Source: Gammaproteobacteria bacterium (GTDB taxonomy: Bacteria > Pseudomonadota > Gammaproteobacteria > JAADGQ01). Taken from it: a stretch of DNA of 64,000 nt. Shown here one piece after another: positions 19,845 to 51,342 of this stretch; within the stretch, counting starts at the first letter, position 1; every line of letters starts with the position of its first letter. The DNA is taken from assembly GCA_015490755.1 (NCBI GenBank), contig WFXF01000002.1, forward strand, positions 8,433 through 72,432, read 5' to 3'. Below the pieces are notes generated by a model. That model did no database searches, was not told the DNA's origin, and was given only the letters and a program-made list of their open reading frames with translations. The position numbers were made by a program, and so were the translations under genes.

Positions 19845-19923
19845 CGTTCTTCCTAAACTTTGTAACTATTATTTATGTAAACGACTATTTTGCATAGGTT
19901 TCTTTTCAAGAGATATTAGCACG

Positions 19924-20085
19924 ATGAACTATCAAACAAGCACATTTATTTTAATATTTTTAATAACAGCTTTTTCATCACCTGTTTTTGCTGTAGATTC
20001 GGGCCGGGATGGCTACAAAATAGTTGGTCAGATGCATCTGGTGGCTTTCTATATCTATCCATATCCAGGTACGTCAACGCATTAA
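19924..20085 (+). CDS. small hypothetical secreted peptide (about 53 aa)
   Basis: An ATG at 19924 opens a predicted signal peptide (FILIFLITAFSSPVFA|VD) inside a longer ORF. There is no recognisable similarity. Confidence 0.25.
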   Translation: MNYQTSTFILIFLITAFSSPVFAVDSGRDGYKIVGQMHLVAFYIYPYPGTSTH

Positions 20086-20173
20086 ATGTGAAATGGATTA
20101 TCATGTAGGCCTTGACTCACACCAAACTCAGTAATACGATTAATATTTATGTGTTACTAGCAAGGTTTTTGAT

Positions 20174-20791: not shown

Positions 20792-20812
20792 AATGTTGTT
20801 GTTTGATTGGAT

Positions 20813-22615: not shown

Positions 22616-23421
22616 TGTCGGCGATGATCAAGTGCTGGAAAATTACGGCGAGTGCTGGTCAGTTGATCAAGGTTAATATCAGCAATGACAAAGCCGGATC
22701 CTTGGGGGCGGTGATCGAGTATTGTTCCCCATGGGTCGACGATCATGCTGTGGCCGTGAGTCGCTCGACCATTGACATGAAACCCTCCTTGCGCGGCTGC
22801 AATGACATAACTTAAATTTTCAATCGCACGTGCGCGAACTAATGTTTCCCAGTGTGCTTTGCCGGTCATTGCGGTAAATGCGGCGGGTACGACAAAAAAA
22901 TCGACTCCTTTATTGATTAAAGATCGATAAAGCTCTGGAAAGCGTAAGTCATAACAAACCGTTATACCCATGCAGCCGAAGGGGGTGTCAACGGTTACAA
23001 GTGAGTCTCCCGCTTCTATGGTGGCAGATTCGGTATAACTCTCCTGACTCTCTTCCAGCAAGACATCAAAAAGGTGAAGTTTGTCATAACGGGCGATGCG
23101 CTGACCTTCATTGTTGAAGACAAGGCAGGATGCATATGCTTTATTCGGGTTGTCGCTGACTAAGGGAATCGTGCCACCCACGATCCATATGTCATGCTTG
23201 ATCGCCTGTTGCGTCAAAAAACCTTGAATTTGACCGTCATCTTCATGCTCTCGAATATCAACTTTTTCAGTTTCAATGCGGCCCATCAGCGCAAAATTTT
23301 CAGGGAGCACAATAAGCTTTGCTCCCGATGCGACTGCTTGCCCAATGAGTTTATCTGCTTCAATAAGGTTTGCATTTAAATTGGGCCCTGAAGCCATCTG
23401 GATTGCAGCAATTCGGTTCAT
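22612..23421 (-). CDS. carbon-nitrogen hydrolase family protein (nitrilase / omega-amidase-like)
   Basis: CN-hydrolase fold with its E-K-C triad context. Overlaps recQ by 4 bp. Confidence 0.88.
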   Translation of the reverse strand: MNRIAAIQMASGPNLNANLIEADKLIGQAVASGAKLIVLPENFALMGRIETEKVDIREHEDDGQIQGFLTQQAIKHDIWIVGGTIPLVSDNPNKAYASCLVFNNEGQRIARYDKLHLFDVLLEESQESYTESATIEAGDSLVTVDTPFGCMGITVCYDLRFPELYRSLINKGVDFFVVPAAFTAMTGKAHWETLVRARAIENLSYVIAAAQGGFHVNGRATHGHSMIVDPWGTILDHRPQGSGFVIADINLDQLTSTRRNFPALDHRRQ

Positions 23422-26400
23422 TTATCAGCCTGTTTTTTCTCTGGAATTTTATAGGTTGAAACTTTTTCTACAACAGGCTCATCCCAAGATCCTGTGACGC
23501 GATATTCAGTGCTGGCGATGGTATCCAGCTTGGGTAAAAATACTTTTTGAAAAATAAGTACAGCAGCACCCGCACCCATCCAGCTGGAGCCTGCGGCAAT
23601 TGCACCCGCAACGGGTAGTATGGAGCTGACTTTTGGAGTCACTAATACTTGTTGATTATAGTCCTCATCAGCCAGTCCTATACGGCCAATCATTTTAACC
23701 TCAGCTGCACTGCTTGTCATGACCAGATTTTCAGTAAATGCATCACCCATGTCAATTTTGTAGTCACCTATAATTTTGTCAAACTTAAAGCCTTTGCCGA
23801 AGAGATCTCTAAAGTCCAAAGCGAGTCGTTTTGGCAGAGCTTGCAGGCTTAACAGGCTTACAATGCGTCCAGCACCGGGTTTAATATCAGTCAGTTGGCC
23901 ATCCCTGATATCCATGTTGAGATCACCGCGAAAGCGTGTCAAATCAAAGTCAGTAGGTGAGCCGAGCCAGTTGGCATTGATTTTAACTCCTCCTTTACCA
24001 CCTTTGATCGGCATGACAACGTCAAAAAGCGCGAGTGTTTTGGGCAGTTGATTAATTTTTAGATCAATTTCAAAGGCTGTTTTTTGTTGGTTGTTAATGT
24101 CAAGCCAATCACCTTGCGCTGTAATTTTAGTATGGCTTGAGTCGAGGGTAATTTTCTCAAAATGGAGGCCATTTTTCTGTGATGTCGCGGTGAGGCTTAG
24201 TGTTCCAAAATTGTTACCATTAAAAATAAATTGCTGGCTTGTGATTTGTAACGAAGGTATTTTTTTAGGGTCTGCCGCAGGTGAAGGTGATTGAATTTCA
24301 CGCTCTTTTTGCGATTGAAGTTCAAGGTGTTCAAGATTCATTATGATGGGCAAAGAGATTTGACGCGGCAGAGAGATCATCCCTTTAAGCTGTGTGCTGT
24401 CAATATCGACCTGCCAGGCCTGTTTTGTTCTATTCACAAAAACATTAGCCTGGTCAAAATATTGGCCGAAAGCCTCCATTGAGTTGATCTGTAAATCAAT
24501 ACTGTTAGGTAGGTTGATATCACTTTTTTGCTCCGTTGATTCAGGAAGTACACTTAGCCAGTCACTGATAGAGAGTTTTGGTAAGCTGCCAGCAATACGT
24601 AGTTGTGGTTTGTTAGGGAGTACTGCGAAATCATCACCAAAACGAAGTTCACCGCGTTCCCACACAACTGTTTCCTGAGTCGCATCACGTAAAAATATAC
24701 CATTAATTTTTTCCCCATAACGAAGGGTAACCGGTTCTTTCAGTGCGCCCCCCAGCAGCCCCATTTCCAGAATAAAAGTACGTGGCTCTATTGATTGTTT
24801 TTTGAGTGGGTATGGCAGGGTAATGGCCAGCCCTTTTAGTAAAGACTCGACGTGCAAATTGACATCGGGTGGTTTATTTTTACCCTTTTCCGAGGTTAGT
24901 TGAAGCCGTGCATGCCAGTCTGTTTTCCCCTTTAAAAAGCGATTGTCAGGGAGGTGAATGATTTTTGATAGTCGTGTCGCATCAACGATGCCATCCGCAG
25001 TAAACTGGATAATATTGTTTTTTTGATTATCGTGATGGGTGCGAATGACCAGTTCAGTCTCCATGCCGAGCAATTTGCCCTGAATACCGGGTGAATAAAT
25101 CCCTTGCTCTGAAAAAACAAGCATGCCTTGCAGTTGTTCGAGATCAACAGCACCTTCTGCGAGCAATAGTGTATTGTTATCAAATGTAATTTCACCATTA
25201 ACTTTGTGACCGGTGGGCGCAATCGGCAGGTCGAGTTGCAGATGCAATTGACTTGGACCTGTTGCTTCACTGCTCGTGGCAAAAGTTCCGAACTGTGCTT
25301 TTAGTGGGCTCTCTTTAAGGAACTTCAAGGTATCAGAAAGCGGGCCATCAATATAACCATTGATGGTTATATTTAGTGGATTGTCTTTAAAATCTAAAAT
25401 AAGTGCGTTGACATCACGTAATTGTGAATTGAGTAATTGGCCTGATGTGGCATTGATCTCCATACCTGCGCCCTTGAATACCGCTTCAAGTTGCAGCGCT
25501 TCCAGCCGAGGCCAGTGATCCAGGTAGTCAAGAGTTGCATTTTCAGCATTGAAACGTACCTCAAAGTGACCCTGGTTTTTTCTAAATGGAAACCCTTTGA
25601 GCGGGCCATGAAAAAGAATACTTCCATGAGTGACATGGCCATCAATAATGGAATTGTCCAGCCACGTGACTGCTCCTTCCGGCATAATTCCCACGGGTAA
25701 ATAACGTGATGTTTTCTTGGCATCTCCATCTGAAAAATTTGCAAAAATTTCCAGAAATGGAGGTGAGTGGTCTGAAGGAAACTCAAGCAACATTGAGCCT
25801 CTAGCCGTAATATCGCTATTTTTTAATACAATATCGCTTGATTGAATACGCCAACCGATATCACTTTTTCCCCAATGCAGGCGGCCATTCAATAAATCCA
25901 CAGGCAATTTTTCACGAAACAGCATGCCTGTATCCAGTTTTGCAGTATGGCTGTTGATATCAAGTATGCCTGCCTGTTGATTTAAAGTAATGGAGCCATT
26001 GAGGTTTTTTATGCCGGGAATTGGGTGGCTAAATTGTGTTGTCAGGTTTCTAAACTTTGATTGGAATGAGAATGTTTCAGAGCTCTCTTTGTTTGCTTTT
26101 TGGTACTGTAAATAGGTGTCAGAAAAAGAGCCGGCAGGTTTTAATTTTTTCAGTAGTTTTGTCGTTTTTTGATCCAGCAGGTCACTGTTCAATAATAAAT
26201 CTCGCAAGTCATCAATTTGAATAAATGAGCTTCGTACTGTGTAGTGTTCGGAGGGTTGAGCGCTGTTTTTTTCAATACTAAACTGGCTTGTGGGCCAGGT
26301 ATGTCTGTTTCGTTGGAGAATAAATTGATCAATATCCAATATAAAGCCTTCTTGTTGACGTAACCAGGCAAAATTTCCAGAAAGTCGATCAATTAAAAAT

Positions 26401-27359
26401 GGTCTGTTTTTAGAGGTGCTTTTGCCAGTTTTAACTGAATCGAGCCGAATATGTTGCCCATTGAGCATGCCAGAGGCTGAAGTGATGAGTGATTTTTCCC
26501 AATGACTCCATAGTTTAAGGTTTATTTTCCCTGTGAGTGTGAGCTGTTGTTTGGGTGTTAAAATGTTCAACCACTCTTGCGGGTTGATATTTGTACCTTC
26601 AATGTAGACCTGGCCAGACCACTGTTCAGGTTTTGATAGATCACCTGTGCCATCAAGTGCAAAAGAGAGCTGCTCTCCCAGACTGTTAGGTAGTGAAATT
26701 TTTGCGGTGAGTTGATGGCGGCCATTAATATTGCGGGTTTCAATTTGTGCATCCTGAAAGGTGAGTTGATGATTGCCTGTTATCTGGTCTGTCCAGAGTA
26801 GCTTTTTAACTTCAATATTAATTTGCTCCTGACTGAGTAACCAGCGTAGGGTTTCTATTCCATGTTGGTCGTCTGTCGCTTTTTCAGGTGTGAAATTTAA
26901 CTCTTTAAGCAGTAACTCTCCCTGCTTGTTACGTTGCAAGTCTAATTGATCAATTGACAAGTCAAGTTGATCCAGGGTGATGTTCCAGCGATGCAGTGAT
27001 TCGAGCAGGTCTAAACCGATCAGGGCTTTTTCAAAATTGAGCAGGGTATGTTTTTCAGTGTTGTCTAGCAGTTCGAGTCCATGAAGCTCCAGGCGGGGGC
27101 CAAAGCGATACCAGCGGGCTTTGATTTCAGTGATACGCACAGGTTGTCCCAGTGCGTCACTGACGGCTGCTTCAATGCTCTGACGGTAAGCTCCAATTTC
27201 AGGCAAAACAACACGGGCTATACTGAGGAATACGGCCAGAATGATGATGAAAGCAACAAATGTATGGCGGCTTATGTGAAAACAGTTCCACAGGCAAAGT
27301 TTTATAAAGTGATCTTTGCCAGGCTTTTCATCTTTTTTACGATCTACTGCTTGAGCCAT
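23418..27359 (-). CDS. yhdP: YhdP-family AsmA-like protein (TIGR02099; envelope lipid transport)
   Basis: 1313 aa with an N-terminal TM anchor. Its size and its position next to rng match E. coli yhdP. Confidence 0.85.
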   Translation of the reverse strand: MAQAVDRKKDEKPGKDHFIKLCLWNCFHISRHTFVAFIIILAVFLSIARVVLPEIGAYRQSIEAAVSDALGQPVRITEIKARWYRFGPRLELHGLELLDNTEKHTLLNFEKALIGLDLLESLHRWNITLDQLDLSIDQLDLQRNKQGELLLKELNFTPEKATDDQHGIETLRWLLSQEQINIEVKKLLWTDQITGNHQLTFQDAQIETRNINGRHQLTAKISLPNSLGEQLSFALDGTGDLSKPEQWSGQVYIEGTNINPQEWLNILTPKQQLTLTGKINLKLWSHWEKSLITSASGMLNGQHIRLDSVKTGKSTSKNRPFLIDRLSGNFAWLRQQEGFILDIDQFILQRNRHTWPTSQFSIEKNSAQPSEHYTVRSSFIQIDDLRDLLLNSDLLDQKTTKLLKKLKPAGSFSDTYLQYQKANKESSETFSFQSKFRNLTTQFSHPIPGIKNLNGSITLNQQAGILDINSHTAKLDTGMLFREKLPVDLLNGRLHWGKSDIGWRIQSSDIVLKNSDITARGSMLLEFPSDHSPPFLEIFANFSDGDAKKTSRYLPVGIMPEGAVTWLDNSIIDGHVTHGSILFHGPLKGFPFRKNQGHFEVRFNAENATLDYLDHWPRLEALQLEAVFKGAGMEINATSGQLLNSQLRDVNALILDFKDNPLNITINGYIDGPLSDTLKFLKESPLKAQFGTFATSSEATGPSQLHLQLDLPIAPTGHKVNGEITFDNNTLLLAEGAVDLEQLQGMLVFSEQGIYSPGIQGKLLGMETELVIRTHHDNQKNNIIQFTADGIVDATRLSKIIHLPDNRFLKGKTDWHARLQLTSEKGKNKPPDVNLHVESLLKGLAITLPYPLKKQSIEPRTFILEMGLLGGALKEPVTLRYGEKINGIFLRDATQETVVWERGELRFGDDFAVLPNKPQLRIAGSLPKLSISDWLSVLPESTEQKSDINLPNSIDLQINSMEAFGQYFDQANVFVNRTKQAWQVDIDSTQLKGMISLPRQISLPIIMNLEHLELQSQKEREIQSPSPAADPKKIPSLQITSQQFIFNGNNFGTLSLTATSQKNGLHFEKITLDSSHTKITAQGDWLDINNQQKTAFEIDLKINQLPKTLALFDVVMPIKGGKGGVKINANWLGSPTDFDLTRFRGDLNMDIRDGQLTDIKPGAGRIVSLLSLQALPKRLALDFRDLFGKGFKFDKIIGDYKIDMGDAFTENLVMTSSAAEVKMIGRIGLADEDYNQQVLVTPKVSSILPVAGAIAAGSSWMGAGAAVLIFQKVFLPKLDTIASTEYRVTGSWDEPVVEKVSTYKIPEKKQADK

Positions 27360-27374
27360 TAGTCTCTTAAATAT

Positions 27375-28832
27375 TTACAACAAAATAATATCGAATTGCT
27401 CTTGGGTATAAGTGGCCTCAATTTGGAATTTTACTGGTTTGTTGATGAACTCTTCCAGTTCAGCAACACGGGTAGACTCTTCATCAATTAAGCGGTCAAC
27501 AACCTCAGGACAGGCAAGAACCAGATATTCCCGAGCATCAAATTGGCGGGCTTCACGCATAATTTCACGAAAAATATCATAGCAGGTGGTTTCGGCTGTT
27601 TTTACAGAGCCTCGACCATTACAGGTTGGACATGTCTCGCATAGAATGTGCTCCAGGCTTTCGCGGGTACGTTTGCGGGTCATCTCGACCAGCCCTAGTG
27701 CTGAAACGGTACTGATATTATATTTTGAATGGCTATTCGCCATGTGTCTTTCCAGTGCTTGCAGTACCTGCTGTTTATGTTTTTCGTCAGTCATATCAAT
27801 AAAATCGATGATGATGATACCGCCAAGGTTACGTAATCTGAGTTGTCGAGCAACCGCATGAGTCGCTTCAAGGTTGGTTTTAAAAATGGTTTCGCTGAGG
27901 TTTTTATGTCCGACAAATGCTCCCGTATTCACGTCAATAGTTGTCATGGCTTCTGTCTGGTCTATGACCAGATAACCACCGGACTTGAGTTGAACCTGGC
28001 GCTCAAGCGCTTTCTGGATTTCATCTTCAATGGAGTAGATGTCAAAGATGGGACGTTCACCTGGGTAATGTTGTACACGATCTGCTATTTCAGGTAGGAA
28101 AGTTTGGGCAAAATGAGCTGCACGCTGATGTGTTTCCCGTGAATCGATACGTATTCGATCAATATCCTGGTTGACCATGTCACGCATGGTGCGCATGGCG
28201 AGTGGAAAACCTTCGTAGACCATCATTCCGACTGTTGCATTTTGAATGCGCTCTTGTACTTTTTTCCATAATCGATTCAGGAAGTCCATATCAGCCAACA
28301 GATCTTTTGTATCGGATCCTTCAGCCGCTGTACGTACTATATAGCCATGTCTATTTTCTGTGGCTGCACTCTGAATAATTTTTTTAAGGCGTAATCGCTC
28401 CTTTTCATTCTCGATTTGGTGTGAGATGCCAATGTCTGTTGTATTGGGAATCAGTACAAGGTAGCGAGATGGAATAGATATGTGTGTGGTTAAACGTGCG
28501 CCTTTTGTTCCCAATGGGTCTTTGATGACCTGTACCAGTAACTCTTGACCGTCATGGAGCAGTGAGCGAATCTGTTTCTCATTATGTTCACTATCATTGC
28601 CAGGTAAAGTTCGTATATCAGACGCATGAAGAAAAGCAGAGCGTTCCAGGCCTATATCAATAAAAGCGGCCTGCATACCGGGTAAAATCCGGCACACTTT
28701 ACCGTGGTAAATATTGCTCACCAGGCCACGTTTGCTGCTACGCTCGATATGTACTTCCTGAAGCACACCATTTTCGACGATTGCGACTCGTGTCTCACTG
28801 GGGGTGACGTTAATTAATATCTCTTCACTCAT
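27375..28832 (-). CDS. rng: ribonuclease G
   Basis: An S1 domain plus the RNase E/G catalytic domain; 485 aa. Confidence 0.93.
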   Translation of the reverse strand: MSEEILINVTPSETRVAIVENGVLQEVHIERSSKRGLVSNIYHGKVCRILPGMQAAFIDIGLERSAFLHASDIRTLPGNDSEHNEKQIRSLLHDGQELLVQVIKDPLGTKGARLTTHISIPSRYLVLIPNTTDIGISHQIENEKERLRLKKIIQSAATENRHGYIVRTAAEGSDTKDLLADMDFLNRLWKKVQERIQNATVGMMVYEGFPLAMRTMRDMVNQDIDRIRIDSRETHQRAAHFAQTFLPEIADRVQHYPGERPIFDIYSIEDEIQKALERQVQLKSGGYLVIDQTEAMTTIDVNTGAFVGHKNLSETIFKTNLEATHAVARQLRLRNLGGIIIIDFIDMTDEKHKQQVLQALERHMANSHSKYNISTVSALGLVEMTRKRTRESLEHILCETCPTCNGRGSVKTAETTCYDIFREIMREARQFDAREYLVLACPEVVDRLIDEESTRVAELEEFINKPVKFQIEATYTQEQFDIILL

Positions 28833-28878
28833 GTTTTATATATCGGCCGCTATTGCACCTGCCTTGTTGAAAAATATT

Positions 28879-29349
28879 TTAGGCACGATGGTAGGGGTGG
28901 TTGGCCAGGATGCTCCAGGCACGGTAAATCTGTTCGGCAAGTAGTATGCGTACCAGCGGATGAGGCAGCGTGAGTGGTGAAAGTGACCAGGATTGCCGGG
29001 CACGGTTCAGGCAGGATGGGTCGAGCCCTTCTGGGCCACCAACAAGGAGTGCGATATTGCGCCCATCTTGCATCCATTGACTCATTTGAGATGAAAGCTT
29101 TTCTGTACTCCAGCTCTGGCCTTTAACATCCAGTGCAATGGTCAGGCAATCTTTGGGAAGTACAGCGAGCATACGTTCACCTTCTTGCTGCAAAATACGT
29201 TTAATATCGCTATTTTTACCACGCTTGCCAGCAGGAATTTCGTGGAGATTCAGTCTGCACTCGTGGGGGAGGCGTTTGGCGAACTCAGAGTAACCGTCAT
29301 TGACCCATCGAGGCATTTTTTGGCCGATTGCAACAAGGTGGATCTGCAT
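28879..29349 (-). CDS. rlmH: 23S rRNA (pseudouridine1915-N3)-methyltransferase RlmH
   Basis: 156-aa SPOUT methyltransferase; MQIHLVAIG… is the typical RlmH N-terminus. Confidence 0.92.
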   Translation of the reverse strand: MQIHLVAIGQKMPRWVNDGYSEFAKRLPHECRLNLHEIPAGKRGKNSDIKRILQQEGERMLAVLPKDCLTIALDVKGQSWSTEKLSSQMSQWMQDGRNIALLVGGPEGLDPSCLNRARQSWSLSPLTLPHPLVRILLAEQIYRAWSILANHPYHRA

Positions 29350-29352
29350 GAG

Positions 29353-29694
29353 CTAACTTGCTACTTCAGCATCGGTATTCCAAAGCTTTTCCAGTTGATA
29401 AAACTCGCGCATATCAGGTGTCATGATATGAATAACAACATCAGCGAGATCAACTAATATCCAGTTTCCGGGGTGCTGCCCTTCAACACCGATCGGCGTA
29501 CAGCCGTTTTCCTTGCTTTTTACGATAACACTATTGGCCAGCGCTTTGACCTGGCGGTCAGAGCTACCCGTGGCAATGATCATAAAGTCAGTGACACTGC
29601 TCATGCCGCGTACGTCGAATACTTGAATATTGATACCTTTTAAATCTTCCAGGGCTTCGAGAGAAATATTTTTTAATTGCTCAGGGCTGATCAT
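29353..29694 (-). CDS. rsfS: ribosomal silencing factor RsfS
   Basis: 113 aa of the Iojap/YbeB family, directly upstream of rlmH. Confidence 0.92.
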   Translation of the reverse strand: MISPEQLKNISLEALEDLKGINIQVFDVRGMSSVTDFMIIATGSSDRQVKALANSVIVKSKENGCTPIGVEGQHPGNWILVDLADVVIHIMTPDMREFYQLEKLWNTDAEVAS

Positions 29695-29740
29695 TACATT
29701 ACTTCTTGCATTTGATAGTCGCGCGAGTATAACAGATGTG

Positions 29741-29914
29741 CTACTTGTTTTGGGTCACGAGCGCACTACTTTCCAAAGCAGCAGACAAGTTTTGGGCCAT
29801 TTTTAGTTGCAGTCGTGCAGTTGACATGCTGTTGATGGTCAATAAAGAGAGCACCAGAAGCAACACAATGCTGACTATGAGCATACCGCCCAGCTGTTTT
29901 TCCCTATGTTTCAT
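29741..29914 (-). pseudogene. 58-codon remnant encoding only the N-terminal (PilX_N-like) segment of a type IV minor pilin
   Basis: The minus-strand translation is MKHREKQLGGMLIVSIVLLLVLSLLTINSMSTARLQLKMAQN…. This is a prepilin-like hydrophobic N-terminus followed by the PilX-type (S/T)xxLxxxMAxN motif. It is not in the ORF track because it is under 60 aa, and no globular domain follows. Confidence 0.45.
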
Positions 29915-29918
29915 TACA

Positions 29919-30923
29919 TTATTTTACCTGATCCGTTTGCTTGATTTTCTTCAAATATATAATCGATGCTCTTCGGTTCTCATCATCTGGATAGACACGA
30001 CCGGAGGTGAGGCAAGTAAAAATATGTTTGAAAACTTCGCCGGGAGTGCCTTTTTTGGTTCCAGAGCGAAAATAGGAGTGGCCTTTGGGGCGGTCATATG
30101 CACTATTAACATCATCGCAATCAACTCGATATACATTTCTTGGTGTTTTCTCTATATCTTCCGGGCCGGTATGACCTAACCTGCGAGATGCAATTTTATT
30201 TTTAAGGTTTGAAACTTTGCTTGCTCGAAGTGCCAGGTCATCCGATGCGTGATAAACAATAACATTACGTGAAGTATGGCAGATTAATTCTCCAGGCTCA
30301 CCTTTGTGAAGTGTTTCATTGACTACATCAGCAGCGACCATGAAGGTGTTTCTAAAAATCAGGGGCAACCCTTTGGGCAGGTCATATTTGCCCCAGACGG
30401 ATAATGTTTCTCGTAGAACACGGTTCCCCATAGAGTGAGCTAATAAGTTGACTCTTTTCAGGCAGGGTTCATCCTGAGGGTTATATTTTTCAGAATTACG
30501 CCATGCTATGAATTTTTCTAATACTCTTGCAAAAGAGAAGGCACTTTGGTCAGCAGCTTTTTGATCATCCCAATAATCCTTGATAATTCCTAAATCGTTG
30601 TCGCATGGCCAAACGATGGGGATGACTAGAATTTCACCCTTTTTAGTTTTTTCACAAAGGTTTTGAAATTCATTAACGGCAGAAAACACATCTTCAGGAA
30701 GGTTGGAAAACCCATGGATGTATATAAGAATCTGGCGACATTCCGACCCTTTTAGCCGACTTAAAAACTCAATACTGCCAATCTCTTTGTACTCTTTTTC
30801 AGATAAACGTTCACAGAAAAATACTGAATTGCTTGCTGCATTATTATTTAGGTCAAAATCAAAATTTCGTCCAACCCGGGTTCGAATGCTCTGTTTTGGG
30901 AATCGGTTTGTAATAAAAATCAT
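29919..30923 (-). CDS. alpha/beta-hydrolase fold protein (putative esterase/lipase, DUF900-like). It is an orphan and AT-rich.
   Basis: 334 aa with the nucleophile elbow AHSMG (GxSxG-type), IYIHGF upstream, and candidate Asp/His downstream. It sits where nadD would normally precede rsfS. Confidence 0.7.
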   Translation of the reverse strand: MIFITNRFPKQSIRTRVGRNFDFDLNNNAASNSVFFCERLSEKEYKEIGSIEFLSRLKGSECRQILIYIHGFSNLPEDVFSAVNEFQNLCEKTKKGEILVIPIVWPCDNDLGIIKDYWDDQKAADQSAFSFARVLEKFIAWRNSEKYNPQDEPCLKRVNLLAHSMGNRVLRETLSVWGKYDLPKGLPLIFRNTFMVAADVVNETLHKGEPGELICHTSRNVIVYHASDDLALRASKVSNLKNKIASRRLGHTGPEDIEKTPRNVYRVDCDDVNSAYDRPKGHSYFRSGTKKGTPGEVFKHIFTCLTSGRVYPDDENRRASIIYLKKIKQTDQVK

Positions 30924-30953
30924 TTTAATTTCTCTCCTTATAAAAATTAAGCT
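30824..30953. repeat. copy 1 of a 130-bp direct duplication (the first 33 codons of the hydrolase gene plus 30 bp upstream)
   Basis: Near-identical, with a single 1-nt indel, to 32124-32253. Confidence 0.9.
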
Positions 30954-31020
30954 CTGAACTTTGAACCGAAGTAAAAGAGCAAGTCAGAGTGTAGAAGTTA
31001 TTTCGTGAACGTTCCTAAGT

Positions 31021-31110
31021 GCCGTGTTAAGTGGTTTTGCTTTTCACTATAAGGATATCAGTTTGAAAAACGGTTTTGGTGACCCTAATAATCTGCATAT
31101 GTTTCTTTGA
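31021..31110 (+). pseudogene. fragment paralogous to the C-terminal part of the 185-aa membrane protein at 32905-33462
   Basis: About 80% nucleotide identity to 33247-33336. It translates to AVLSGFAFHYKDISLKNGFGDPNNLHMFL*, against AVLSGFAFHYEDINLAGGFGDPDNLHMLLG in the intact gene. Confidence 0.4.
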
Positions 31111-31120
31111 GTTTTGGATG

Positions 31121-31148
31121 TTGATTGTAATAAATCTAATGTTATAAT
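31121..31148 (+). promoter_or_regulatory. candidate sigma-70 promoter of the TA operon
   Basis: TTGATT, then a 16-nt spacer, then TATAAT, ending 38 nt upstream of the antitoxin ATG. An AAGAGG RBS lies at 31175-31180. Confidence 0.4.
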
Positions 31149-31186
31149 GTGTATCTAATGTATGCACAGAAAAAAGAGGTTATCTT

Positions 31187-31450
31187 ATGAGCAAAACCGC
31201 ATCTATCAATATGCGTGTTGAGCCTAGCCAGCACGAACTTTTAACAAAGGCATCAAGAATTCTACATAAAGATAGAAGTGCCTTTATTTTAGATATTGCC
31301 TGTCGAGAAGCAAAAAATGTACTGCTGGATCAACGTTTGTTTTTATTAGAAAGTGAGGCTTTTGAAAAGTTTGAGCAGGCTTTAAATACTCCACTGGCTG
31401 AAAACAGTAGACTAGAGCAACTTATGGCTGAGCCGTCACCGTGGGATTAA
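31187..31450 (+). CDS. DUF1778-family antitoxin of the TacA/AtaR/KacA type (RHH fold)
   Basis: 87 aa. INMRVEPSQHELLTKAS…SAFILD…A…VL… matches the DUF1778 consensus. It overlaps the toxin gene by 10 bp. Confidence 0.88.
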   Translation: MSKTASINMRVEPSQHELLTKASRILHKDRSAFILDIACREAKNVLLDQRLFLLESEAFEKFEQALNTPLAENSRLEQLMAEPSPWD

Positions 31451-31938
31451 TAAAAAAACCTGAATTACTTGATAGCAAACATAATGTTTTAGGCTTTAAC
31501 TGTGGTAATGAAACCTTAAATGATTGGTTAAAAAAGAAGGCTTTAAAAAATCAAAGGCAGGGAGCAAGTAAAGCCTTTGTTATTTGTGATGACATACAGG
31601 TTGTTGGTTACTACGCTTTGGCAACAGGCAGTGTGGAAAGAATAAATGCACCCAAGTCTTTAGCACGAAATATGCCGAACCCTATACCTGTTATTGTTCT
31701 TGGCAGGTTGGCGATTGACCAGCAGTTTCATGGTAAAAAACTTGGTTCAGCACTACTTAAAGATGCCATAAAACGTACTATTTATATATCTGAAAATGTA
31801 GGTGTAAAGGCTTTACTGGTGCATGCAATTTCAGAAGAAGCTAAAAGATTTTACCTTCACCACAATTTTATTGAATCACCTATAGAATCAATGACGTTAT
31901 TATTATCAATGAATAATAAGAAAAGACTTATAATCTAG
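31441..31938 (+). CDS. GNAT-family toxin (aminoacyl-tRNA-acetylating, TacT/AtaT/KacT-like)
   Basis: 165 aa with an acetyl-CoA binding segment (…QQFHGKKLGSALLKDAIKR…) and the conserved pairing with an upstream DUF1778 antitoxin. Confidence 0.86.
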   Translation: MGLIKKPELLDSKHNVLGFNCGNETLNDWLKKKALKNQRQGASKAFVICDDIQVVGYYALATGSVERINAPKSLARNMPNPIPVIVLGRLAIDQQFHGKKLGSALLKDAIKRTIYISENVGVKALLVHAISEEAKRFYLHHNFIESPIESMTLLLSMNNKKRLII

Positions 31939-32100
31939 GAGCCTGTCCGAGAATGAAAAGTCTACTGCGGAAAATCCATTTCGGCCATATTTGGTGTAAA
32001 TTTTCGTTAAATAGAACAACTATTCGCCTCAAATTTACACCAAATCTGCCATCAAAATGGCTTTCCCTCGCTACGACTTCCATTCTCGGACAGGCTCCTA
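31938..32100. repeat. 163-bp palindromic MITE-like element with 17-bp terminal inverted repeats (GAGCCTGTCCGAGAATG … CATTCTCGGACAGGCTC)
   Basis: Left and right TIRs, and internal inverted segments (ATTTGGTGTAAATTT / AAATTTACACCAAAT), are directly visible. It starts at the toxin stop codon. A second partial copy lies at 51147-51254. Confidence 0.7.
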
Positions 32101-32123
32101 GTCATGGTACTTTACCAATGAAC

Positions 32124-32253
32124 TGAATTGCTTTGCCGCATTATTATTTAGGTCAAAATCAAAATTGCGTCCAACTCGGGTTCGAATGCTCTGTTTTGGG
32201 AATCGGTTTGTAATAAAAATCATTTTAATTTCTCTCCTTATAAAAATTAAGCT
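32124..32253. repeat. copy 2 of the 130-bp direct duplication. It carries a truncated hydrolase start (46-codon relic ORF on the minus strand).
   Basis: Matches 30824-30953. Confidence 0.9.
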
Positions 32254-32307
32254 TCTTTTAAGCTTACATGGTTATGCTGTCACTCTTGGGTCTATAGAAA
32301 TAGAGTA

Positions 32308-32892
32308 ATGGTTATGAGTGAAAGTAGCACAAAACAAATTAAAGTATGGGATGGCCTTGTGCGCGGTTTTCACTGGCTGATGCTGCTCTCTTTTGTGGGC
32401 GCTTATATTACTAGCCAGTCAGGAATGCAGCAAACTCATATTTTGATTGGCTACTTCATCTGTTTATTACTGATTATTCGTACTGTGTGGGGCTTTATCG
32501 GAAGCAAACATGCGCGCTTCTCTGATTTTGTTGCTTTACCTTCACATGTATGGGCTTATCTGCAAGCCAGCTTTAGAAACAGTCCCCCTCATTATTTTGG
32601 TCATAATCCAGCTGGTGGCTGGATGGTGTTGGCTTTGATGGGGGCGCTTTTGTTGATGTCTGTGAGTGGAGTGATTCTTGTCTCTGTAATCGAATTTGAA
32701 GGGCCACTACTGAATTTATTGTCTGGTATGAGTGATCAGTGGGCCTATCGCTATGAAGAGCTGCATGAAGTGGCACTTAACATCTTGTGGTTGTTGATCG
32801 CAGGGCATTTAGTGGGTGTGGTCGTTGCATCAATTCAACATAAAGAAAATCTGCTACGTGCCATGGTCAGTGGGTATAAAATTATAAAATAG
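32308..32892 (+). CDS. cytochrome b561 family protein (CybB/YceJ-like, PF01292)
   Basis: 194 aa with four TM helices and conserved His (…FHWLMLL…, …GHLVGVV…) in the Ni/Fe-hydrogenase b-type cytochrome fold. Confidence 0.85.
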   Translation: MVMSESSTKQIKVWDGLVRGFHWLMLLSFVGAYITSQSGMQQTHILIGYFICLLLIIRTVWGFIGSKHARFSDFVALPSHVWAYLQASFRNSPPHYFGHNPAGGWMVLALMGALLLMSVSGVILVSVIEFEGPLLNLLSGMSDQWAYRYEELHEVALNILWLLIAGHLVGVVVASIQHKENLLRAMVSGYKIIK

Positions 32893-32904: not shown

Positions 32905-33462
32905 ATGATGAAAAAGTATTTAGCGATCTGCTGCATATTATTTAGCTGGAATTGCTCTGCTCAAGCTCAGGAATACATGCCAGAACACTTTTTGGATTTG
33001 TCTGTTAAGCCGCAACCGTATACATCCTATATTCAATTAGCCCAGCTTGATACGGCAAATTTAAATGCTACCCATGAAGGCCATAATGAAGAGAAGAAAC
33101 CCCTGTTTAAATCCAGGCCTGTGACTTTGAATAAAGTGCATAAATATCTTGGTTACGCTTCAATGGTAAGTGCTGTATTGACAGGGTTGTCACCCAAAAC
33201 AGCCGGGGGTCCTCATGAGCTTTTTGGTACAGCCGCAGCCGCTTTTGGTGCGGCAGCTGTGTTAAGCGGTTTTGCTTTTCATTATGAAGATATCAATTTG
33301 GCGGGTGGTTTTGGCGACCCGGATAACTTGCATATGCTTCTTGGCATTTTAGGAACCGCAGGTTATGCCGTTGCTGTGAGTAGTGGTGAAGATGGTGGGC
33401 ATGGTGGTCCTGGTACTCTTGGTGCGCTCAGCATGGCTATGGCTATTAAATTAACCTGGTAG
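32905..33462 (+). CDS. hypothetical protein: signal peptide, a roughly 70-aa periplasmic segment, then Gly/Ala-rich TM helices flanked by His residues
   Basis: 185 aa with no recognisable family. Tightly coupled (a 12-bp gap) between the b561 gene and the c-type cytochromes. Confidence 0.6.
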   Translation: MMKKYLAICCILFSWNCSAQAQEYMPEHFLDLSVKPQPYTSYIQLAQLDTANLNATHEGHNEEKKPLFKSRPVTLNKVHKYLGYASMVSAVLTGLSPKTAGGPHELFGTAAAAFGAAAVLSGFAFHYEDINLAGGFGDPDNLHMLLGILGTAGYAVAVSSGEDGGHGGPGTLGALSMAMAIKLTW

Positions 33463-33472
33463 GAGCTTAAGA

Positions 33473-33865
33473 ATGAATAAAATATTAATTTTTGTGGTTG
33501 CAATACTCTTCTCATCAATTGCATTGGCGACAACCCCCATTGATCAACGTATGGCTGATTATAACCCTGATGGTAATCTGATATTTGATGCTAAACGTGG
33601 TGAAGATTTATGGAATCAGAAGCGTATGGTTGATGGCAAACAGCGTGATTGTAACGCTTGCCACGGTAAAGATCTCACACAGCCGGGTGAGCATGTAAAA
33701 AGTGGCAAAGTGATTAAGCCTATGGCCTATTCAGTCAATAAGGAGCGTTTCACTAAACTGAAAAAGGTCAAAAAGTGGTTCAAACGTAATTGTAAATGGA
33801 CTTATGGACGCGAGTGCACCACTCAAGAGAAAGGTGATTTGCTTAAATACTTATCTCAATTTTAA
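33473..33865 (+). CDS. monoheme c-type cytochrome (single CxxCH; SHP/DUF1924-like)
   Basis: A signal peptide and one CNACH haem-binding motif; 130 aa. Confidence 0.75.
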   Translation: MNKILIFVVAILFSSIALATTPIDQRMADYNPDGNLIFDAKRGEDLWNQKRMVDGKQRDCNACHGKDLTQPGEHVKSGKVIKPMAYSVNKERFTKLKKVKKWFKRNCKWTYGRECTTQEKGDLLKYLSQF

Positions 33866-33881: not shown

Positions 33882-34448
33882 ATGACTAAAAGACTAACAA
33901 TATTATCTATAGTGACTCTCTTGGGGCTGGGAATCAATACGTCGGTCTTTGCAGATGGTGAAAGTTTTTTTGATTGGTTGTTGACTACGGATTCGCGTAA
34001 CGAAATCAAACCCATGCAGAATGAGTTATATAATGAGGAGTGCAGCGACTGTCACTTTCCTTATCAGGCGGGCCTATTACCGGAAGCCTCTTGGAAAAAG
34101 CTGCTTGACCCTAAAGCACTGGAAGACCATTTTGGTGATAATGCTGAATTAGATGATGAAACAAGGAGTGCAATATTGGATGCTTTGATTGCGGATTCGG
34201 CCGATAAATCACGATATAAGCGTTCCAAAAAAATTATGTCATCACTGGGCGAAAATGAAGTGCCCATGCGTATTATTGATATTCCTTATATTAAGCGTAA
34301 GCATCATGAAATTTCTGATAAACTCATCACTGGAAATGACAAGGTGAAATCATTAAGTTTTTGCGATGCATGTCATCAAAAAGCAGATGAGGGAATCTAT
34401 GATGATGACAGCGTGGTAATTCCTGGGCATGGTAACTGGACGTGGTAA
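33882..34448 (+). CDS. diheme cytochrome c (DHC family)
   Basis: A signal peptide and two CxxCH motifs (CSDCHF and CDACHQ) about 105 aa apart, as in DHC. Confidence 0.8.
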   Translation: MTKRLTILSIVTLLGLGINTSVFADGESFFDWLLTTDSRNEIKPMQNELYNEECSDCHFPYQAGLLPEASWKKLLDPKALEDHFGDNAELDDETRSAILDALIADSADKSRYKRSKKIMSSLGENEVPMRIIDIPYIKRKHHEISDKLITGNDKVKSLSFCDACHQKADEGIYDDDSVVIPGHGNWTW

Positions 34449-34468: not shown

Positions 34469-35131
34469 ATGCGTATACTTCTGGTTGAAGACGATCCGCA
34501 GTTGGGCGATGGCATTCGTACCGGTCTGCAACAGGTCAGTTATGCTGTAGATTGGTTACGTGATGGCTTGGGCGCTTTGCATAGTCTGGAAGTCGAAAAC
34601 TTTGATATGGTGATACTCGATCTGGGTTTGCCACGTATGGATGGTCTCAGTGTACTGGAGAAAATTCGTGCTTCCGGCAACGATGTACCCATATTGATTT
34701 TAACAGCGAGAGACACTGTTGCAGATCGTGTCAAAGGGCTTGACAGCGGTGCCGATGATTATTTGGCAAAACCATTTGATCTGGATGAGTTGTGCGCTCG
34801 AATAAGGGCATTGAGTCGTCGTCACAGTGGCCGGGCATCCTCATTAATCAAGTACCGTGATATCGTTTTGGATCCAATGGCTCACAGCCTCAATAAAAAC
34901 GGTGAAGAGATAAATCTATCAACCCGAGAATTTAAAATTCTACAAATTCTGTTTGAAAATATCGGTCGTGTCTTGTCCAGAGAGCGCATTGAAGAAAGCT
35001 TGTTCGGCTGGGATGATTCACTTGAAAGTAATGCCACCGAAGTTCATATTCATCATCTGCGCAAAAAATTGGGCAAAGATCTTATTGTGACTATTCGCGG
35101 TGTTGGTTACATGATCGCTAAAGAGAGTTGA
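34469..35131 (+). CDS. OmpR/PhoB-family DNA-binding response regulator
   Basis: A receiver domain (DD…D…K) plus a winged-helix trans_reg_C domain. Confidence 0.93.
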   Translation: MRILLVEDDPQLGDGIRTGLQQVSYAVDWLRDGLGALHSLEVENFDMVILDLGLPRMDGLSVLEKIRASGNDVPILILTARDTVADRVKGLDSGADDYLAKPFDLDELCARIRALSRRHSGRASSLIKYRDIVLDPMAHSLNKNGEEINLSTREFKILQILFENIGRVLSRERIEESLFGWDDSLESNATEVHIHHLRKKLGKDLIVTIRGVGYMIAKES

Positions 35132-36483
35132 TGAAACCCCGTTCAATCCGTCAAAACTTATTATTATTGGTATTGGGGGCAGTATTCATCTCTTGGGCAG
35201 TAGTTGCTCTGTTTGTCTATAAAAGTGCTAAACATGAAACTGAAGAGGTTTATGATGCACATCTGGTTCAAAGTGCCAAGTTGTTAGCCTCATTAATCAG
35301 GTATGAGCAGGAAAAGAGTCATCAGCTACAGGTTGAGATGGATGACTTTCTACCCATAGCACATAAATACGAATCTAAAATATCTTTTATTGTTTATTAT
35401 GGTGATGGAAAGGTAATGGTTCGTTCAGCATCGGCTCCAATACTGCCGGAGATTGAATCTTTCAATAATTTCAAACAGATCGAAGTTGATGGCGTCATTT
35501 GGTATACCTATAACCTTCGTGACCCCAAGACAAACTTACTTATTCAAACCGCTCAACGTTATGATGTCCGCCAGGAACTGATTAACTATATTAGTAGTAG
35601 CGTATTAGGTGTAATGCTGCTTTCTCTGCCGTTTATCGCAATTTTGATCTGGATTACTATTGGTCGAGGCCTGCGCCCATTGGTTCTGCTGGCAGATTCT
35701 ATATCGGGCCGATCAGTACAGCAGTTGGAGCCGATTACACTCGAAAGAGTGCCTACTGAAGCACAGCCTATTGTTTATGCTTTGAACTCTCTTTTTAATC
35801 GCTTGTCGCAAGCTTTTGAAAAAGAGCGACGCTTTACTGCGGATGCGGCTCATGAGTTGCGTACACCATTGTCAGGTATAAAAACCCAGGCACAGGTGGC
35901 TCTGCGATCAACAGAAAACAAGCAGCGACAGCAAGCGATAGTGCAAGTGATTACGGGCGTTGAACGTACAACCAAGCTGGTCAATCAGCTGTTAATTCTT
36001 GCCAGAGTTGATGCTGAGCAACATATCGTTAAAACTGAGCTGAACCTGAAACAGCTATGCGCGACCGTGATTAGCGAACAGATTGTTTCAGCTCTGAGTA
36101 AAAATATAGATATCAGTCTGGAAGGTGAGTCACTTGTAACCATAAATGGTAATGAAGAGTTGATACATATTTTGATTGCGAATGTAATCAATAATGCAAT
36201 ACGTTATACGCCCAGCGAAGGGCGTATTATTGTCAGTGTAACAAGTGATGCGCAGGGTATAGTGTTTGAGGTGAAAGATTCCGGTTTTGGTATATCTAAA
36301 TCATTGCAGACAGAAGTTTTTAATCGTTTTAAACGTGGTGAGCATTCAGATATTTCTGGTAGCGGATTGGGGTTATCAATAGTGTTGCGAATCTCCGAGC
36401 TACACCGTGCAAGAATTCAGCTGGGTGAAGGTTTGGATAATGCAGGGCTTAGTGTCAAAATCACTTTTGAACAAACTGCGTAA
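35128..36483 (+). CDS. sensor histidine kinase (two TM, HAMP, HisKA, HATPase_c)
   Basis: H-box AHELRTPL and G1/G2 boxes (GSGLGLSIV). Overlaps the regulator gene by 4 bp. Confidence 0.92.
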   Translation: MMKPRSIRQNLLLLVLGAVFISWAVVALFVYKSAKHETEEVYDAHLVQSAKLLASLIRYEQEKSHQLQVEMDDFLPIAHKYESKISFIVYYGDGKVMVRSASAPILPEIESFNNFKQIEVDGVIWYTYNLRDPKTNLLIQTAQRYDVRQELINYISSSVLGVMLLSLPFIAILIWITIGRGLRPLVLLADSISGRSVQQLEPITLERVPTEAQPIVYALNSLFNRLSQAFEKERRFTADAAHELRTPLSGIKTQAQVALRSTENKQRQQAIVQVITGVERTTKLVNQLLILARVDAEQHIVKTELNLKQLCATVISEQIVSALSKNIDISLEGESLVTINGNEELIHILIANVINNAIRYTPSEGRIIVSVTSDAQGIVFEVKDSGFGISKSLQTEVFNRFKRGEHSDISGSGLGLSIVLRISELHRARIQLGEGLDNAGLSVKITFEQTA

Positions 36484-36500: not shown

Positions 36501-36932
36501 TTATATCTTTACGTAATGGATTCGCCCTTGTTCCGTTAATTGAATATTCAACCTCTCTGAGCGATGCCAATTCGCTAATTTTTTTGGGCTGACCTTAAAG
36601 TAGTGTGCTAATTCATTTTGGTGAATAATGCTCTGCCGTTTTTTTCGATTGGCATGGCGGTTATGTAACAGGATATTGTATTTGATCCACAACCAAAAAC
36701 TCACAATTATTGTAGTGATGAGTGACAAAAGGGCTATAAATATTTCAATATTGATCCCTCGTTCATCAATACTTATGGCTGACAGGTCAATACCCGCAAA
36801 TGTGAGTAGCGGTTTAAGTGCGGGTAGTAGCAAATAGATCCACAGCATCCATAATACGAGCGTTATCGAGCTTAGTGTAATCCTTTGTGGTATGCCTTGG
36901 AGATGGGGGTTTTGGATGATTAACGTGTTCAT
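36501..36932 (-). CDS. pgaD: poly-beta-1,6-N-acetyl-D-glucosamine biosynthesis protein PgaD
   Basis: 143 aa with two TM helices, directly after pgaC (1-bp overlap). Confidence 0.8.
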   Translation of the reverse strand: MNTLIIQNPHLQGIPQRITLSSITLVLWMLWIYLLLPALKPLLTFAGIDLSAISIDERGINIEIFIALLSLITTIIVSFWLWIKYNILLHNRHANRKKRQSIIHQNELAHYFKVSPKKLANWHRSERLNIQLTEQGRIHYVKI

Positions 36933-38194
36933 TAGCGTATTCCTCTGTCAGGGCTGACCCAGGTGGCTCGTGAGCTGCGCTGGGTTAATAGTGTTTTGGG
37001 AAGTGCTACAGTCATGGTTAACAGATTGATTAACCAGTAGACCAGGGGGTACCAGATCATCCAGTAATAAAGTCTGCCCAGGCTTTTTTCATAGCGACCA
37101 TCAATATAGAAGCTCACAGCAAACTGAATGAGGCAGGTCAAACCGAGTAGAAGGCCTGCAGAACTTGGTATGAAGGAAAATGCCGTCATACCTTCTGGAT
37201 GTGGAATGAATGGCATCAGTGCCCATAGTATGATTAGGGATATGACCCCATAGGTCCACAAAATGCTGATGAAATATTCAGTCAATAATAACCACAAGCG
37301 TCGTTGGCGCAGACGTATGACTTGTGGCAGATAGCGAATAAAGACTTCGACACCTCCTTGTGCCCAGCGAAGGCGCTGTTGCCATAGACCCTTGAGTGTT
37401 TCCGGCATTAAAATCCAGCATAAAGCGTTTGGCTCGAAACGGATGTCCCACCCTTTTAATTGCAGCTTCCAGGTTATATCTATGTCTTCAGTAATTGCAT
37501 CTACGCTCCAATAATCAGCATCTTGCAAAGCAGATTTTCGAAATCCGGCAATGACACCAGAAATAGAGAACAGACGGCCATAGACACGTTGAGCACGCTT
37601 TATAAGGCCAACAATGGAAGAGAATTCACCGACTTGTATTTTGCCAAGAAGGGTAGAGCGAGTGCGTACACGAGGGTTGCCGGTTACAGCACCGACGCGA
37701 GGGCTGCTAAGGAAATGCCGCATGATCCAGCCGGTGGCATTGCTATCAAGCAGGGCATCACCATCAATACAGACGAGGAATTCATTAGATGACACCATCG
37801 CACCCATACGTAGAGCCATGGCTTTACCCTGGTTTTCTTCCAGGTGTACGACGCGTAAGCGGGAGTACTTTTTATTCAGTTTATCCAGTAATTCACCAGT
37901 GTTATCAGTACTTCCATCATTGATAGCAATAATGTCAAAATAAGGGTAGTTTTGTCTGTTCAGTGCCGCGATGGTTTCACTTAAATTATCACCTTCGTTA
38001 TGACAAGGAACAAGTATGCTGACGTGAGGATAGGCTGGCAGACTGTTCAGTATGCTCCCACCGTTAGGCTGGTTTCGTTCCCACTTGATGTAGTATATGA
38101 TGCCGCCGATCATCCAGACATAGGCCATCAGCAATGGATAGTAATAGGCAAAGCTGAGCGTTGAACTTAGGTAGAGAGGGAGCCAGTTTTCCAT
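36932..38194 (-). CDS. pgaC: poly-beta-1,6-N-acetyl-D-glucosamine synthase (GT2)
   Basis: A GT2 catalytic domain (D, DxD, QxxRW = QQRLRWAQG) flanked by TM helices. Confidence 0.93.
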   Translation of the reverse strand: MENWLPLYLSSTLSFAYYYPLLMAYVWMIGGIIYYIKWERNQPNGGSILNSLPAYPHVSILVPCHNEGDNLSETIAALNRQNYPYFDIIAINDGSTDNTGELLDKLNKKYSRLRVVHLEENQGKAMALRMGAMVSSNEFLVCIDGDALLDSNATGWIMRHFLSSPRVGAVTGNPRVRTRSTLLGKIQVGEFSSIVGLIKRAQRVYGRLFSISGVIAGFRKSALQDADYWSVDAITEDIDITWKLQLKGWDIRFEPNALCWILMPETLKGLWQQRLRWAQGGVEVFIRYLPQVIRLRQRRLWLLLTEYFISILWTYGVISLIILWALMPFIPHPEGMTAFSFIPSSAGLLLGLTCLIQFAVSFYIDGRYEKSLGRLYYWMIWYPLVYWLINLLTMTVALPKTLLTQRSSRATWVSPDRGIR

Positions 38195-38196
38195 GG

Positions 38197-51254: not shown

Positions 51255-51342
51255 TGGCGGGCGAAGCTCGGCAGGCAGTGTAAACGTCATCATAATCATA
51301 AAATAATCGGCAGGGACCTGTTTCTGAGACCGCCGCTCAACT

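Follow-up and report, generated by a model that had tools for sequence, protein, structure and literature searches.

Toxins of the TacT type acetylate aminoacyl-tRNA and arrest translation (PMC4942678, PMC5959882). In the TacAT/AtaRT family, represented by Salmonella TacT (PDB 5FVJ) and the complexes 7F37 and 7AK7/8, the antitoxin gene comes first and overlaps the toxin gene. [quoted passage not shown] Campbell-type integration and homology-facilitated illegitimate recombination leave a foreign segment between direct repeats of host sequence while the interrupted gene is kept, as when genomic islands restore their tRNA target. Members of the DUF900 family of alpha/beta hydrolases include the archaeal secreted phospholipase cinquedea (bioRxiv 10.64898/2026.06.10.730825). 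Counterparts of these systems meet in a 64,000-nt stretch of contig WFXF01000002.1 (assembly GCA_015490755.1; hereafter, the window) from an uncultured vent gammaproteobacterium, in the interval between rsfS, encoding the ribosomal silencing factor, and a cytochrome b561 operon. Comparison with related genomes makes it likely that this interval combines an old, clade-wide junction lacking nadD with one young, strain-specific compound insertion that carries tacAT, a scrap of a foreign gene and an IS1182 MITE. All coordinates are positions within the window; the gene map is based on its open reading frame (ORF) calls, and domains were assigned with Pfam (Table 1).

The insert and its empty sites

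Close relatives were obtained through the contigs that carry the nearest homologues of the DUF900 hydrolase (Table 2); L095 is read as probably the same species as the window, given its nucleotide identity. In L095, one segment (positions 3102-3232) aligns to both copies, denoted L and R, of a direct repeat in the window, and nothing lies between the hydrolase and b561 genes. Likewise, L084/L085 contain a single-copy segment matching L and R and an uninterrupted hydrolase-b561 junction. The hydrolase side of the window is collinear with L095 and L084 up to 30953 and the b561 side from 32122, so that the alignment to the empty sites delimits an insert of 1,168 nt between L and R. Because the mp185 fragment, tacAT, the MITE and the duplication all lie between the collinear flanks and are jointly absent from the empty sites, they form one block. 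Absence from relatives with intact flanks was found for 30954-32253 only, and not for the hydrolase, orf57 or, among genomes with at least 82% nucleotide identity, the b561 operon.

The GC content of the insert is 0.363, compared to 0.437 +/- 0.022 for segments of the same size, which places it in the lowest 1% of the window. The value for the hydrolase (0.40) is marginal, that for the b561 operon (0.39-0.45) is ordinary, that for orf57 is 0.45, and third-position GC of tacT is 0.26. The AT-rich zone is confined to about 30.6-32.4 kb. A first-pass annotation, made from the window sequence alone, had listed a PilX-like ORF, a hydrolase, an mp185-like piece, a toxin-antitoxin (TA) pair, a palindrome and a duplication, all of which were found at about the positions given, with small differences in length. 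The annotation also described 2.6 kb of AT-rich DNA, which is correct for the zone delimited above but not for the remainder, and attributed it to repeated insertion and recombination at a hotspot. Acquired DNA is indeed present and the locus varies, with four configurations among five genomes, but the acquired part is a single compound insertion of 1.3 kb, whereas the hydrolase and orf57 are old. Of the checks proposed there, alignment to related genomes yielded empty sites for the insert but a conserved hydrolase-orf57-rsfS order, and GC content set the insert apart but left the hydrolase marginal and the b561 operon ordinary.

Table 1. Features of the rsfS-b561 interval and neighbouring genes in the window
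Feature	Position	Strand	Basis or remark
recQ	20813-22615	-	
CN-hydrolase	22612-23421	-	
yhdP	23418-27359	-	
rng	27375-28832	-	
rlmH	28879-29349	-	Pfam
rsfS (ribosomal silencing factor), left anchor	29353-29694	-	Pfam RsfS, E=6.3e-33
orf57 (57-aa PilX_N-like ORF, single helix)	29741-29914	-	between hydrolase and rsfS
DUF900 alpha/beta (serine) hydrolase, 334 aa	29919-30923	-	Pfam, E=4.6e-15
L copy of duplicated target	30823-30953		hydrolase codons 1-34 plus 30 nt upstream; within the functional hydrolase gene
Insert as a whole, 1,168 nt	30954-32121		empty-site alignment
Left-end filler of insert, 66-67 nt	30954-31020		
mp185-type gene fragment	31021-31118	+	codons ~117-145, then stop
Mobile tacAT module	31112-31934	+	nucleotide homology to L093/L094
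tacA (DUF1778/TacA1)	31187-31450	+	Pfam, PDB matches
tacT (GNAT)	31441-31938	+	Pfam, PDB matches
Predicted IS1182-family MITE, CTAG on each side	31935-32101		167 nt
Right-end foreign flank of insert, 20 nt	32102-32121		empty-site alignment
R copy of duplicated target	32122-32253		132 nt
Cytochrome b561	32308-32892	+	Pfam
mp185 (185-aa membrane protein)	32905-33462	+	
DUF1924	33473-33865	+	Pfam
Dihaem cytochrome c	33882-34448	+	Pfam
Response regulator	34469-35131	+	Pfam
Histidine kinase	35128-36483	+	Pfam
Partial second MITE copy (about half)	51158-51257		intergenic, between two minus-strand genes

Table 2. Relatives compared at the locus, with nucleotide identity to the window and protein identity to the window products
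Relative	Source	Nucleotide identity	Arrangement	Hydrolase	RsfS	RlmH	Rng
L095	hydrothermal-vent metagenome contig	96.2-97.8%	response regulator-dihaem cytochrome c-DUF1924-mp184-b561, ~90 nt, hydrolase-orf57-rsfS-rlmH-rng	98%	98%	99%	100%
L084/L085	GCA_054016435.1	~82%	as in L095	94%	90%	90%	89%
L086	GCA_054016095.1	~70%	hydrolase-orf57-rsfS; DUF1801 and cbiMQO upstream; no b561 operon there	88%	80%	79%	86%
L099/L100	GCA_054043885.1	82% (b561 side), ~76% (rsfS side)	rsfS-orf57 joined straight to b561-mp184-DUF1924				

The direct duplication, identified by repeat search and BLAST, was correctly recognized at first as a copy of the hydrolase start, but its length is 131 nt in the L copy and 132 nt in the R copy rather than 130 bp, the two differing by three substitutions and one extra T. 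Both copies share species-specific bases with L095, and therefore the duplicated segment is host sequence. Because 131 nt were duplicated, the hydrolase ORF is intact, being completed by the L copy, and the R copy leaves b561 with about 186 nt of its native upstream sequence. Of its own upstream region, the full-length hydrolase gene retains only 30 nt, so that its expression would depend on insert sequences or on read-through. The R copy retains the ribosome-binding site and the start codon, which open a dead-end ORF of 41 aa (32098-32223, minus strand).

The tacA and tacT genes form an antitoxin-first operon, with a 10-nt overlap and a promoter-like site upstream (TTGATT and TATAAT separated by 16 nt, with an upstream TG, at 31121-31148, in a promoter scan). 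TacA matches TacA1 (PF08681, E=1.8e-21) and the PDB chain 7F37_C (E=3e-19). TacT matches Acetyltransf_7, Acetyltransf_10 and Acetyltransf_1 in Pfam and, in a phmmer search against the PDB, aligns over residues 1-157 of 165 with 5FVJ (E=8.4e-49) and 7F36 (E=6.7e-49); the initial call of a DUF1778/GNAT toxin-antitoxin operon is borne out by these matches. The homologues of TacT are 162-168 aa long, which means that the window toxin is full length. Its Y138 (...AKRFYLHHNF) aligns at the position of the catalytic Tyr (Y140 in Salmonella TacT), where the 5FVJ chain has F, presumably because 5FVJ is the Y140F crystal variant of Salmonella TacT, and the acetyl-CoA loop FHGKKLGSALL aligns to FHGKGLGADLL of 5FVJ. 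Thus, gene order and overlap, full-length toxin alignment, the catalytic Tyr and the acetyl-CoA loop are all shared with TacAT/AtaRT, of which the pair is a predicted member. Unlike Salmonella TacAT, the pair belongs to an uncultured host, its proteins are only about half identical to those of Salmonella (by eye), and a MITE target site encloses the tacT stop codon. By homology, TacT would acetylate aminoacyl-tRNA and halt translation, and TacA would neutralise TacT and repress the operon.

At the nucleotide level, homology of tacAT to the two best-sampled foreign loci, both from metagenomes, L093 (85%) and L094 (81%), runs only from 31112/31120 to 31922/31930 and ends at the MITE. The contexts of these two loci are unrelated to the window: one adjoins an IS4-like transposase and the other a HigB-like pair. 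Because nucleotide homology is confined to the module in unrelated contexts, tacAT is best described as a mobile module of about 815 nt.

The left edge of the tacAT homology coincides with the right end of the mp185 fragment (the sequence of the fragment/tacA junction is TTTCTTTGAGTTTTGGATGTTGATTG). In the repeat search and BLAST, 31021-31115 matches 33256-33350 of the resident mp185 gene at 78%, over 95-98 nt. Of the genes compared, those of L099/L100 are closest to the fragment in nucleotide sequence (85%), followed by that of L084 (82%) and then by the resident mp185 and that of L095 (77-78%), and its peptide, which ends in a stop, is 86% identical to the protein P0254; many of the differences from mp185 and its orthologues are synonymous. 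Given the higher identity to L099/L100 than to the resident gene and the many synonymous changes, the fragment appears to come from a once-functional foreign orthologue, in another member of the small clade, and not from a paralogue of the 185-aa protein as initially proposed. Because the fragment is foreign and the boundaries coincide, the arrangement suggests that tacAT was joined to an mp185 orthologue in a previous host. The mp185 family is tiny, with 19 proteins in a search of 5.8 billion, and has no match in Pfam, NCBIfam or PADLOC; searches with the latter two were also without a match for orf57, TacA and the hydrolase.

The MITE, first measured as a palindrome of 163 bp, proved to be 167 nt long when the flanking CTAGs are included. 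It has perfect 21-nt ends, 47-nt arms with 79% complementarity and a fold energy of -78 kcal/mol (z = -14), and is non-coding, with no ORF beyond chance. An Rfam scan of 29600-32400 found no family for the element, only chance matches of microRNA models on the hairpin, and no name for the family was found in the sources searched. At least 120 metagenome stretches contain the 18-nt motif of its ends, with the partner end nearby in 71 of those listed; the spacing of the ends is mostly 141 or 160 nt, but 1.7-1.8 kb in several. Elements of about 1.8 kb with the same ends were found in L106, L183, L171 and L210. In L106 and L183, these long forms contain ORFs of 503-514 aa encoding a DDE transposase (DUF772 and DDE_Tnp_1_6), and the L106 ORF matches NF033551 (NCBIfam IS1182) with 406.7 bits (cutoff 270). 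The palindrome is accordingly classified by sequence as a predicted IS1182-family MITE with autonomous partner elements. It shares with the Correia elements and MITEAba12 all the features listed above but is unusually widespread, from metagenomes to a Pseudomonas conjugative plasmid. The plasmid match (77%) lies at 140982-141149 in an unannotated stretch of NZ_CP034782.1 of Pseudomonas sp. MPC6, a possible vehicle of spread. The partial copy elsewhere in the window is 97% identical over 69 nt and 87% over 99 nt. A distant gammaproteobacterial metagenome-assembled genome, L046 (isolate Cca_21), has two copies (5992-6161 and 9683-9849), one of them between rsfS and rng, where rlmH was not detected.

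CTAG is present at both ends of the window MITE, of the L046 element and of the full-length L106 element, where it is either a 4-nt target duplication or a portion of the repeat. The TAG stop of tacT is provided by the CTAG on the left, and the tacT homologue of L094 (81% identical) ends in CTAG without a MITE; we infer from this that the tacT stop codon was the exact site of MITE insertion. An IS1182-derived MITE would have entered this CTAG before or after the arrival of tacAT at the locus, and its hairpin between tacT and b561 may block read-through, insulating tacAT from b561. An integron attC site was also considered, TA cassettes being common in integrons, and rejected: by inspection there are no attC-type core sites at the ends of the element, copies lie beside housekeeping genes, and full-length copies encode a transposase.

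The nadD-less junction and its neighbours

In a one-genome-per-species scan for RNase G, rsfS-rlmH lies upstream of rng-yhdP in most of the at least 80 loci listed (58-68% protein identity). In 38 of the 39 distant relatives with enough upstream sequence, a gene for a NadD-type cytidylyltransferase (~210 aa, GxFxPxHxGH motif) ends just before rsfS. The premise that rsfS-rlmH is normally preceded by nadD therefore holds for this part of Gammaproteobacteria, and the usual neighbour is gone here: no nadD was found in the whole window, and no nadD-like sequence in the fetched stretches of L095, L084/L085, L086 and L099/L100. In the window, all genes from recQ through the hydrolase form one co-directional run on the minus strand. 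The gap between rlmH and rng is 46 nt in the window (28833-28878) and 0.6-1.1 kb or more in most distant relatives (L004-L083), presumably with another gene there.

The window shares the order of hydrolase, orf57 and rsfS with L095, L084 and L086, that is, down to 70% nucleotide identity. Because they occupy the same position in these relatives and diverge in step with rsfS, rlmH and rng (Table 2), the hydrolase and orf57 are old at this site; the hydrolase appears to be a long-term resident here within the clade, although its family is horizontally mobile at large. In L100 (1-560, Logan SRR33094751), from a third species, about 25 nt resembling the 3' end of the hydrolase gene are left between orf57 and b561, an arrangement that we read as a probable deletion of the hydrolase. 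In L099, a Sel1/trypsin gene follows the dihaem cytochrome gene, and no response regulator or kinase gene was called there. On this evidence, nadD would already have been gone from upstream of rsfS in the ancestor of this clade of uncultured vent-associated Gammaproteobacteria, its place being occupied by the DUF900 hydrolase and orf57, which share the strand of rsfS-rlmH-rng; in some of the species, the b561/cytochrome c/two-component operon would lie divergently beside the hydrolase, about 90 nt apart.

The orf57 frame had been taken for a decaying PilX-like relic. It is intact, at similar length, in five genomes (window, L095, L084, L086 and L100), with dN/dS of 0.10-0.27 between species, where dS is near or beyond saturation, and 0.37 relative to the conspecific L095, and hence is not a decaying relic. 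The PilX_N score is 14.9 bits for the window ORF and 21.8-25.8 for its orthologues (25.8 in L086; cutoff 25.5). In contrast to a PilX minor pilin, orf57 comprises the N-terminal part only (57 aa), with no globular C-terminal domain. These features indicate a maintained small membrane-helix protein of pilin-like ancestry, apparently under purifying selection, which would behave like a small membrane peptide and not like a pilin. Descent of orf57 from the pseudopilin genes at 42.6-43.7 kb was considered and dropped; the adjoining 264-aa gene is not pilin-like.

The hydrolase matches PF05990 (DUF900) with 56.1 bits (cutoff 20.5) as a solo gene, consistent with the initial description of an orphan alpha/beta hydrolase, and its nucleophile elbow, H163-S164-M165-G166, is invariant in 33 homologues. 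The taxonomic search that had been recommended for the hydrolase and the TA proteins found tacAT in the unrelated metagenome loci described above and hydrolase homologues across phyla: the best 120 (P0001-P0120), 74-94% identical in amino acid sequence, come from Gammaproteobacteria, Desulfuromusa, Thermodesulfobacteriota and Planctomycetota. In the loci viewed, including L087-L090, the homologue is a lone ORF in an unrelated context, with nucleotide homology limited to the ORF; that of Desulfuromusa adjoins an ISL3 transposase and BREX genes, and a 64%-identical homologue is located on a plasmid of Dinoroseobacter shibae. Between the same kinds of genomes, the hydrolase is more conserved than RNase G. 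A PDB sequence search with the hydrolase gave no match, and an AlphaFold model (pLDDT 65.6) compared to the PDB with Foldseek retrieved only generic cutinase/PETase-type folds (E~2e-3, TM 0.25-0.33). Cinquedea provides the sole functional lead for DUF900; the likeness to it would consist in the shared DUF900 family, the H-S-M-G elbow and the single-gene unit, and the structural matches of the window hydrolase are only generic, from a medium-confidence model. That the hydrolase is a self-sufficient, horizontally spreading single-gene function, for example in defence or as a toxin-like lipase, fixed with orf57 at the head of the rsfS-rlmH operon in this clade, seems rather improbable.

In L095 and L084/L085, which lack the insert, the b561 operon stands next to the hydrolase gene; in L100 it comes directly after orf57, and in L086, which is more distant, it is missing here. 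The window operon is collinear with that of L095, at 96% nucleotide identity up to the contig end (35354), and with that of L084, at 82%. Because it is present in relatives without the insert and its GC content is ordinary, the operon lies outside the insertion and does not belong to the inserted unit, contrary to the early suggestion that it might belong to the same acquired unit. An older, separate arrival or a rearrangement of the operon is possible, given its absence in L086.

Beyond the operon, positions 36501-41720 of the window contain pgaABCD (PgaD, the GT2 protein PgaC, PgaB and the PgaA barrel, by Pfam); at the corresponding place, with the flanks conserved, L084 (3977-5547) encodes an ArsP permease and a MerR regulator, which makes this another variable segment beside the b561 operon. 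The window also differs from L095 at 9-17 positions per 100 nt at 30600-30799, in the 5' third of the hydrolase gene, and at 32522-32721, within b561, over a background of 0-4 per 100 nt. The b561 protein is 92% identical to that of L095, compared to 98-99% for its neighbours. These patches of raised divergence suggest imported recombination tracts at the locus.

Rival histories of the locus

We propose that a single compound insertion of 1,168 nt affected the hydrolase gene at its 5' end together with the divergent intergenic region, with duplication of 131 nt of the target; the insert would have been put together elsewhere, where the tacAT module was joined to a piece of another species' mp185 orthologue. 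The ORF, Pfam, PADLOC and NCBIfam scans of 29695-32307 found no integrase, recombinase or transposase ORF, and no transposon-like inverted repeats were seen by inspection at the ends of the insert. The five bases CTGAA, with which the insert starts, recur close to the beginning of the duplicated segment, a microhomology that is not compelling. The joining may have occurred either by illegitimate duplicative insertion or template switching, or by Campbell-type integration, in which a small circle brought in the 131-nt segment. The foreign segment between direct host repeats and the preserved gene resemble Campbell-type integration or homology-facilitated illegitimate recombination; the differences are that the insert has no integrase, attachment site, circular form or found donor, and that the repeat is of the host type on both sides.

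Several observations weigh against this history. Four positions differ between the two repeat copies, a divergence similar to that between the window and L095, so that the insertion is young only in a relative sense. A target duplication of 131 nt is unlike the product expected of any transposase or of the IS1182 family. The donor arrangement was not found, and no significant match for the 66-nt filler was found among the loci fetched or in the b561/mp185 regions of four genomes. Finally, the junction between the MITE and the R copy is present only in the window's own assembly, and contigs of independent origin end within the MITE or the repeat; breaks in independent assemblies lie at 32061, 31973 and 30015. 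The last point, together with the multiple copies of the MITE in this genome and the resulting want of independent confirmation for the right junction, would fit a metagenome mis-assembly that created both the duplication and the join over the repeated MITE as artefacts. This is very unlikely, however, because the two repeat copies differ, by three substitutions and an indel, and 20 unique nt separate R from the MITE, neither of which would be produced by collapsed or duplicated reads. Furthermore, an independent assembly, L001 (GCA_027051705.1), is 100% identical from 19919 to 32061, where it ends inside the MITE, and so reproduces the left junction as well as all of the insert that precedes the MITE; the R copy runs seamlessly into b561, as at the empty sites.

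The compound insertion must also be weighed against the hotspot proposed at first, in which nadD was displaced by a number of separate, recent insertions that filled the whole rsfS-b561 interval, perhaps with the b561 operon included. The variability of the locus is compatible with such a history: the hydrolase is deleted in L100, the b561 operon is missing at the site in L086, pgaABCD is replaced by ArsP/MerR in L084, tacAT is restricted to the window strain, two patches diverge from the conspecific sequence, and members of the hydrolase family are found in several phyla and on plasmids. Nevertheless, we consider it unlikely, given that, in genomes as distant as 70% nucleotide identity, the hydrolase and orf57 keep their place and have diverged in the same way as the housekeeping genes beside them, that two genomes with empty sites lack all four young items, which in the window make up one block enclosed by a single pair of repeats, that the b561 operon occurs without the insert and has ordinary GC content, and that the patch contains no integrase or transposase gene. 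A tandem duplication within the lineage, in which a segment with the hydrolase start, b561 and mp185 was doubled, the first copy was mostly deleted and tacAT was inserted, would make the fragment a remnant of the strain's own gene, and the order of L copy, mp185 fragment, R copy, b561 and mp185 fits such a decayed duplicate. The identities do not: they are about 97-98% between the repeats, but 77-78% between the fragment and the resident mp185 and 85% between the fragment and the gene of another species, and the tacAT boundary falls exactly at the end of the fragment, which suggests joining elsewhere. This origin of the fragment was therefore rejected as highly improbable.

Significance of the insertion

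The compound insertion is a case of ordinary genome plasticity, unusually well resolved, with components of already known kinds, and current understanding is unchanged by it. Besides the insertion, the analysis documents an IS1182-derived MITE family with a wide environmental distribution and a DUF900 hydrolase subfamily conserved across phyla. The locus provides an example, resolved to the base pair, of how a TA module would spread: a scrap of the former host's gene came along, a MITE sits at the stop codon, and the new site is a divergent promoter region, where the 131-nt duplication leaves both flanking genes usable. As filled and empty sites exist within what appears to be one species, the effect of the insertion on expression of the hydrolase and of the b561 operon is open to direct test.

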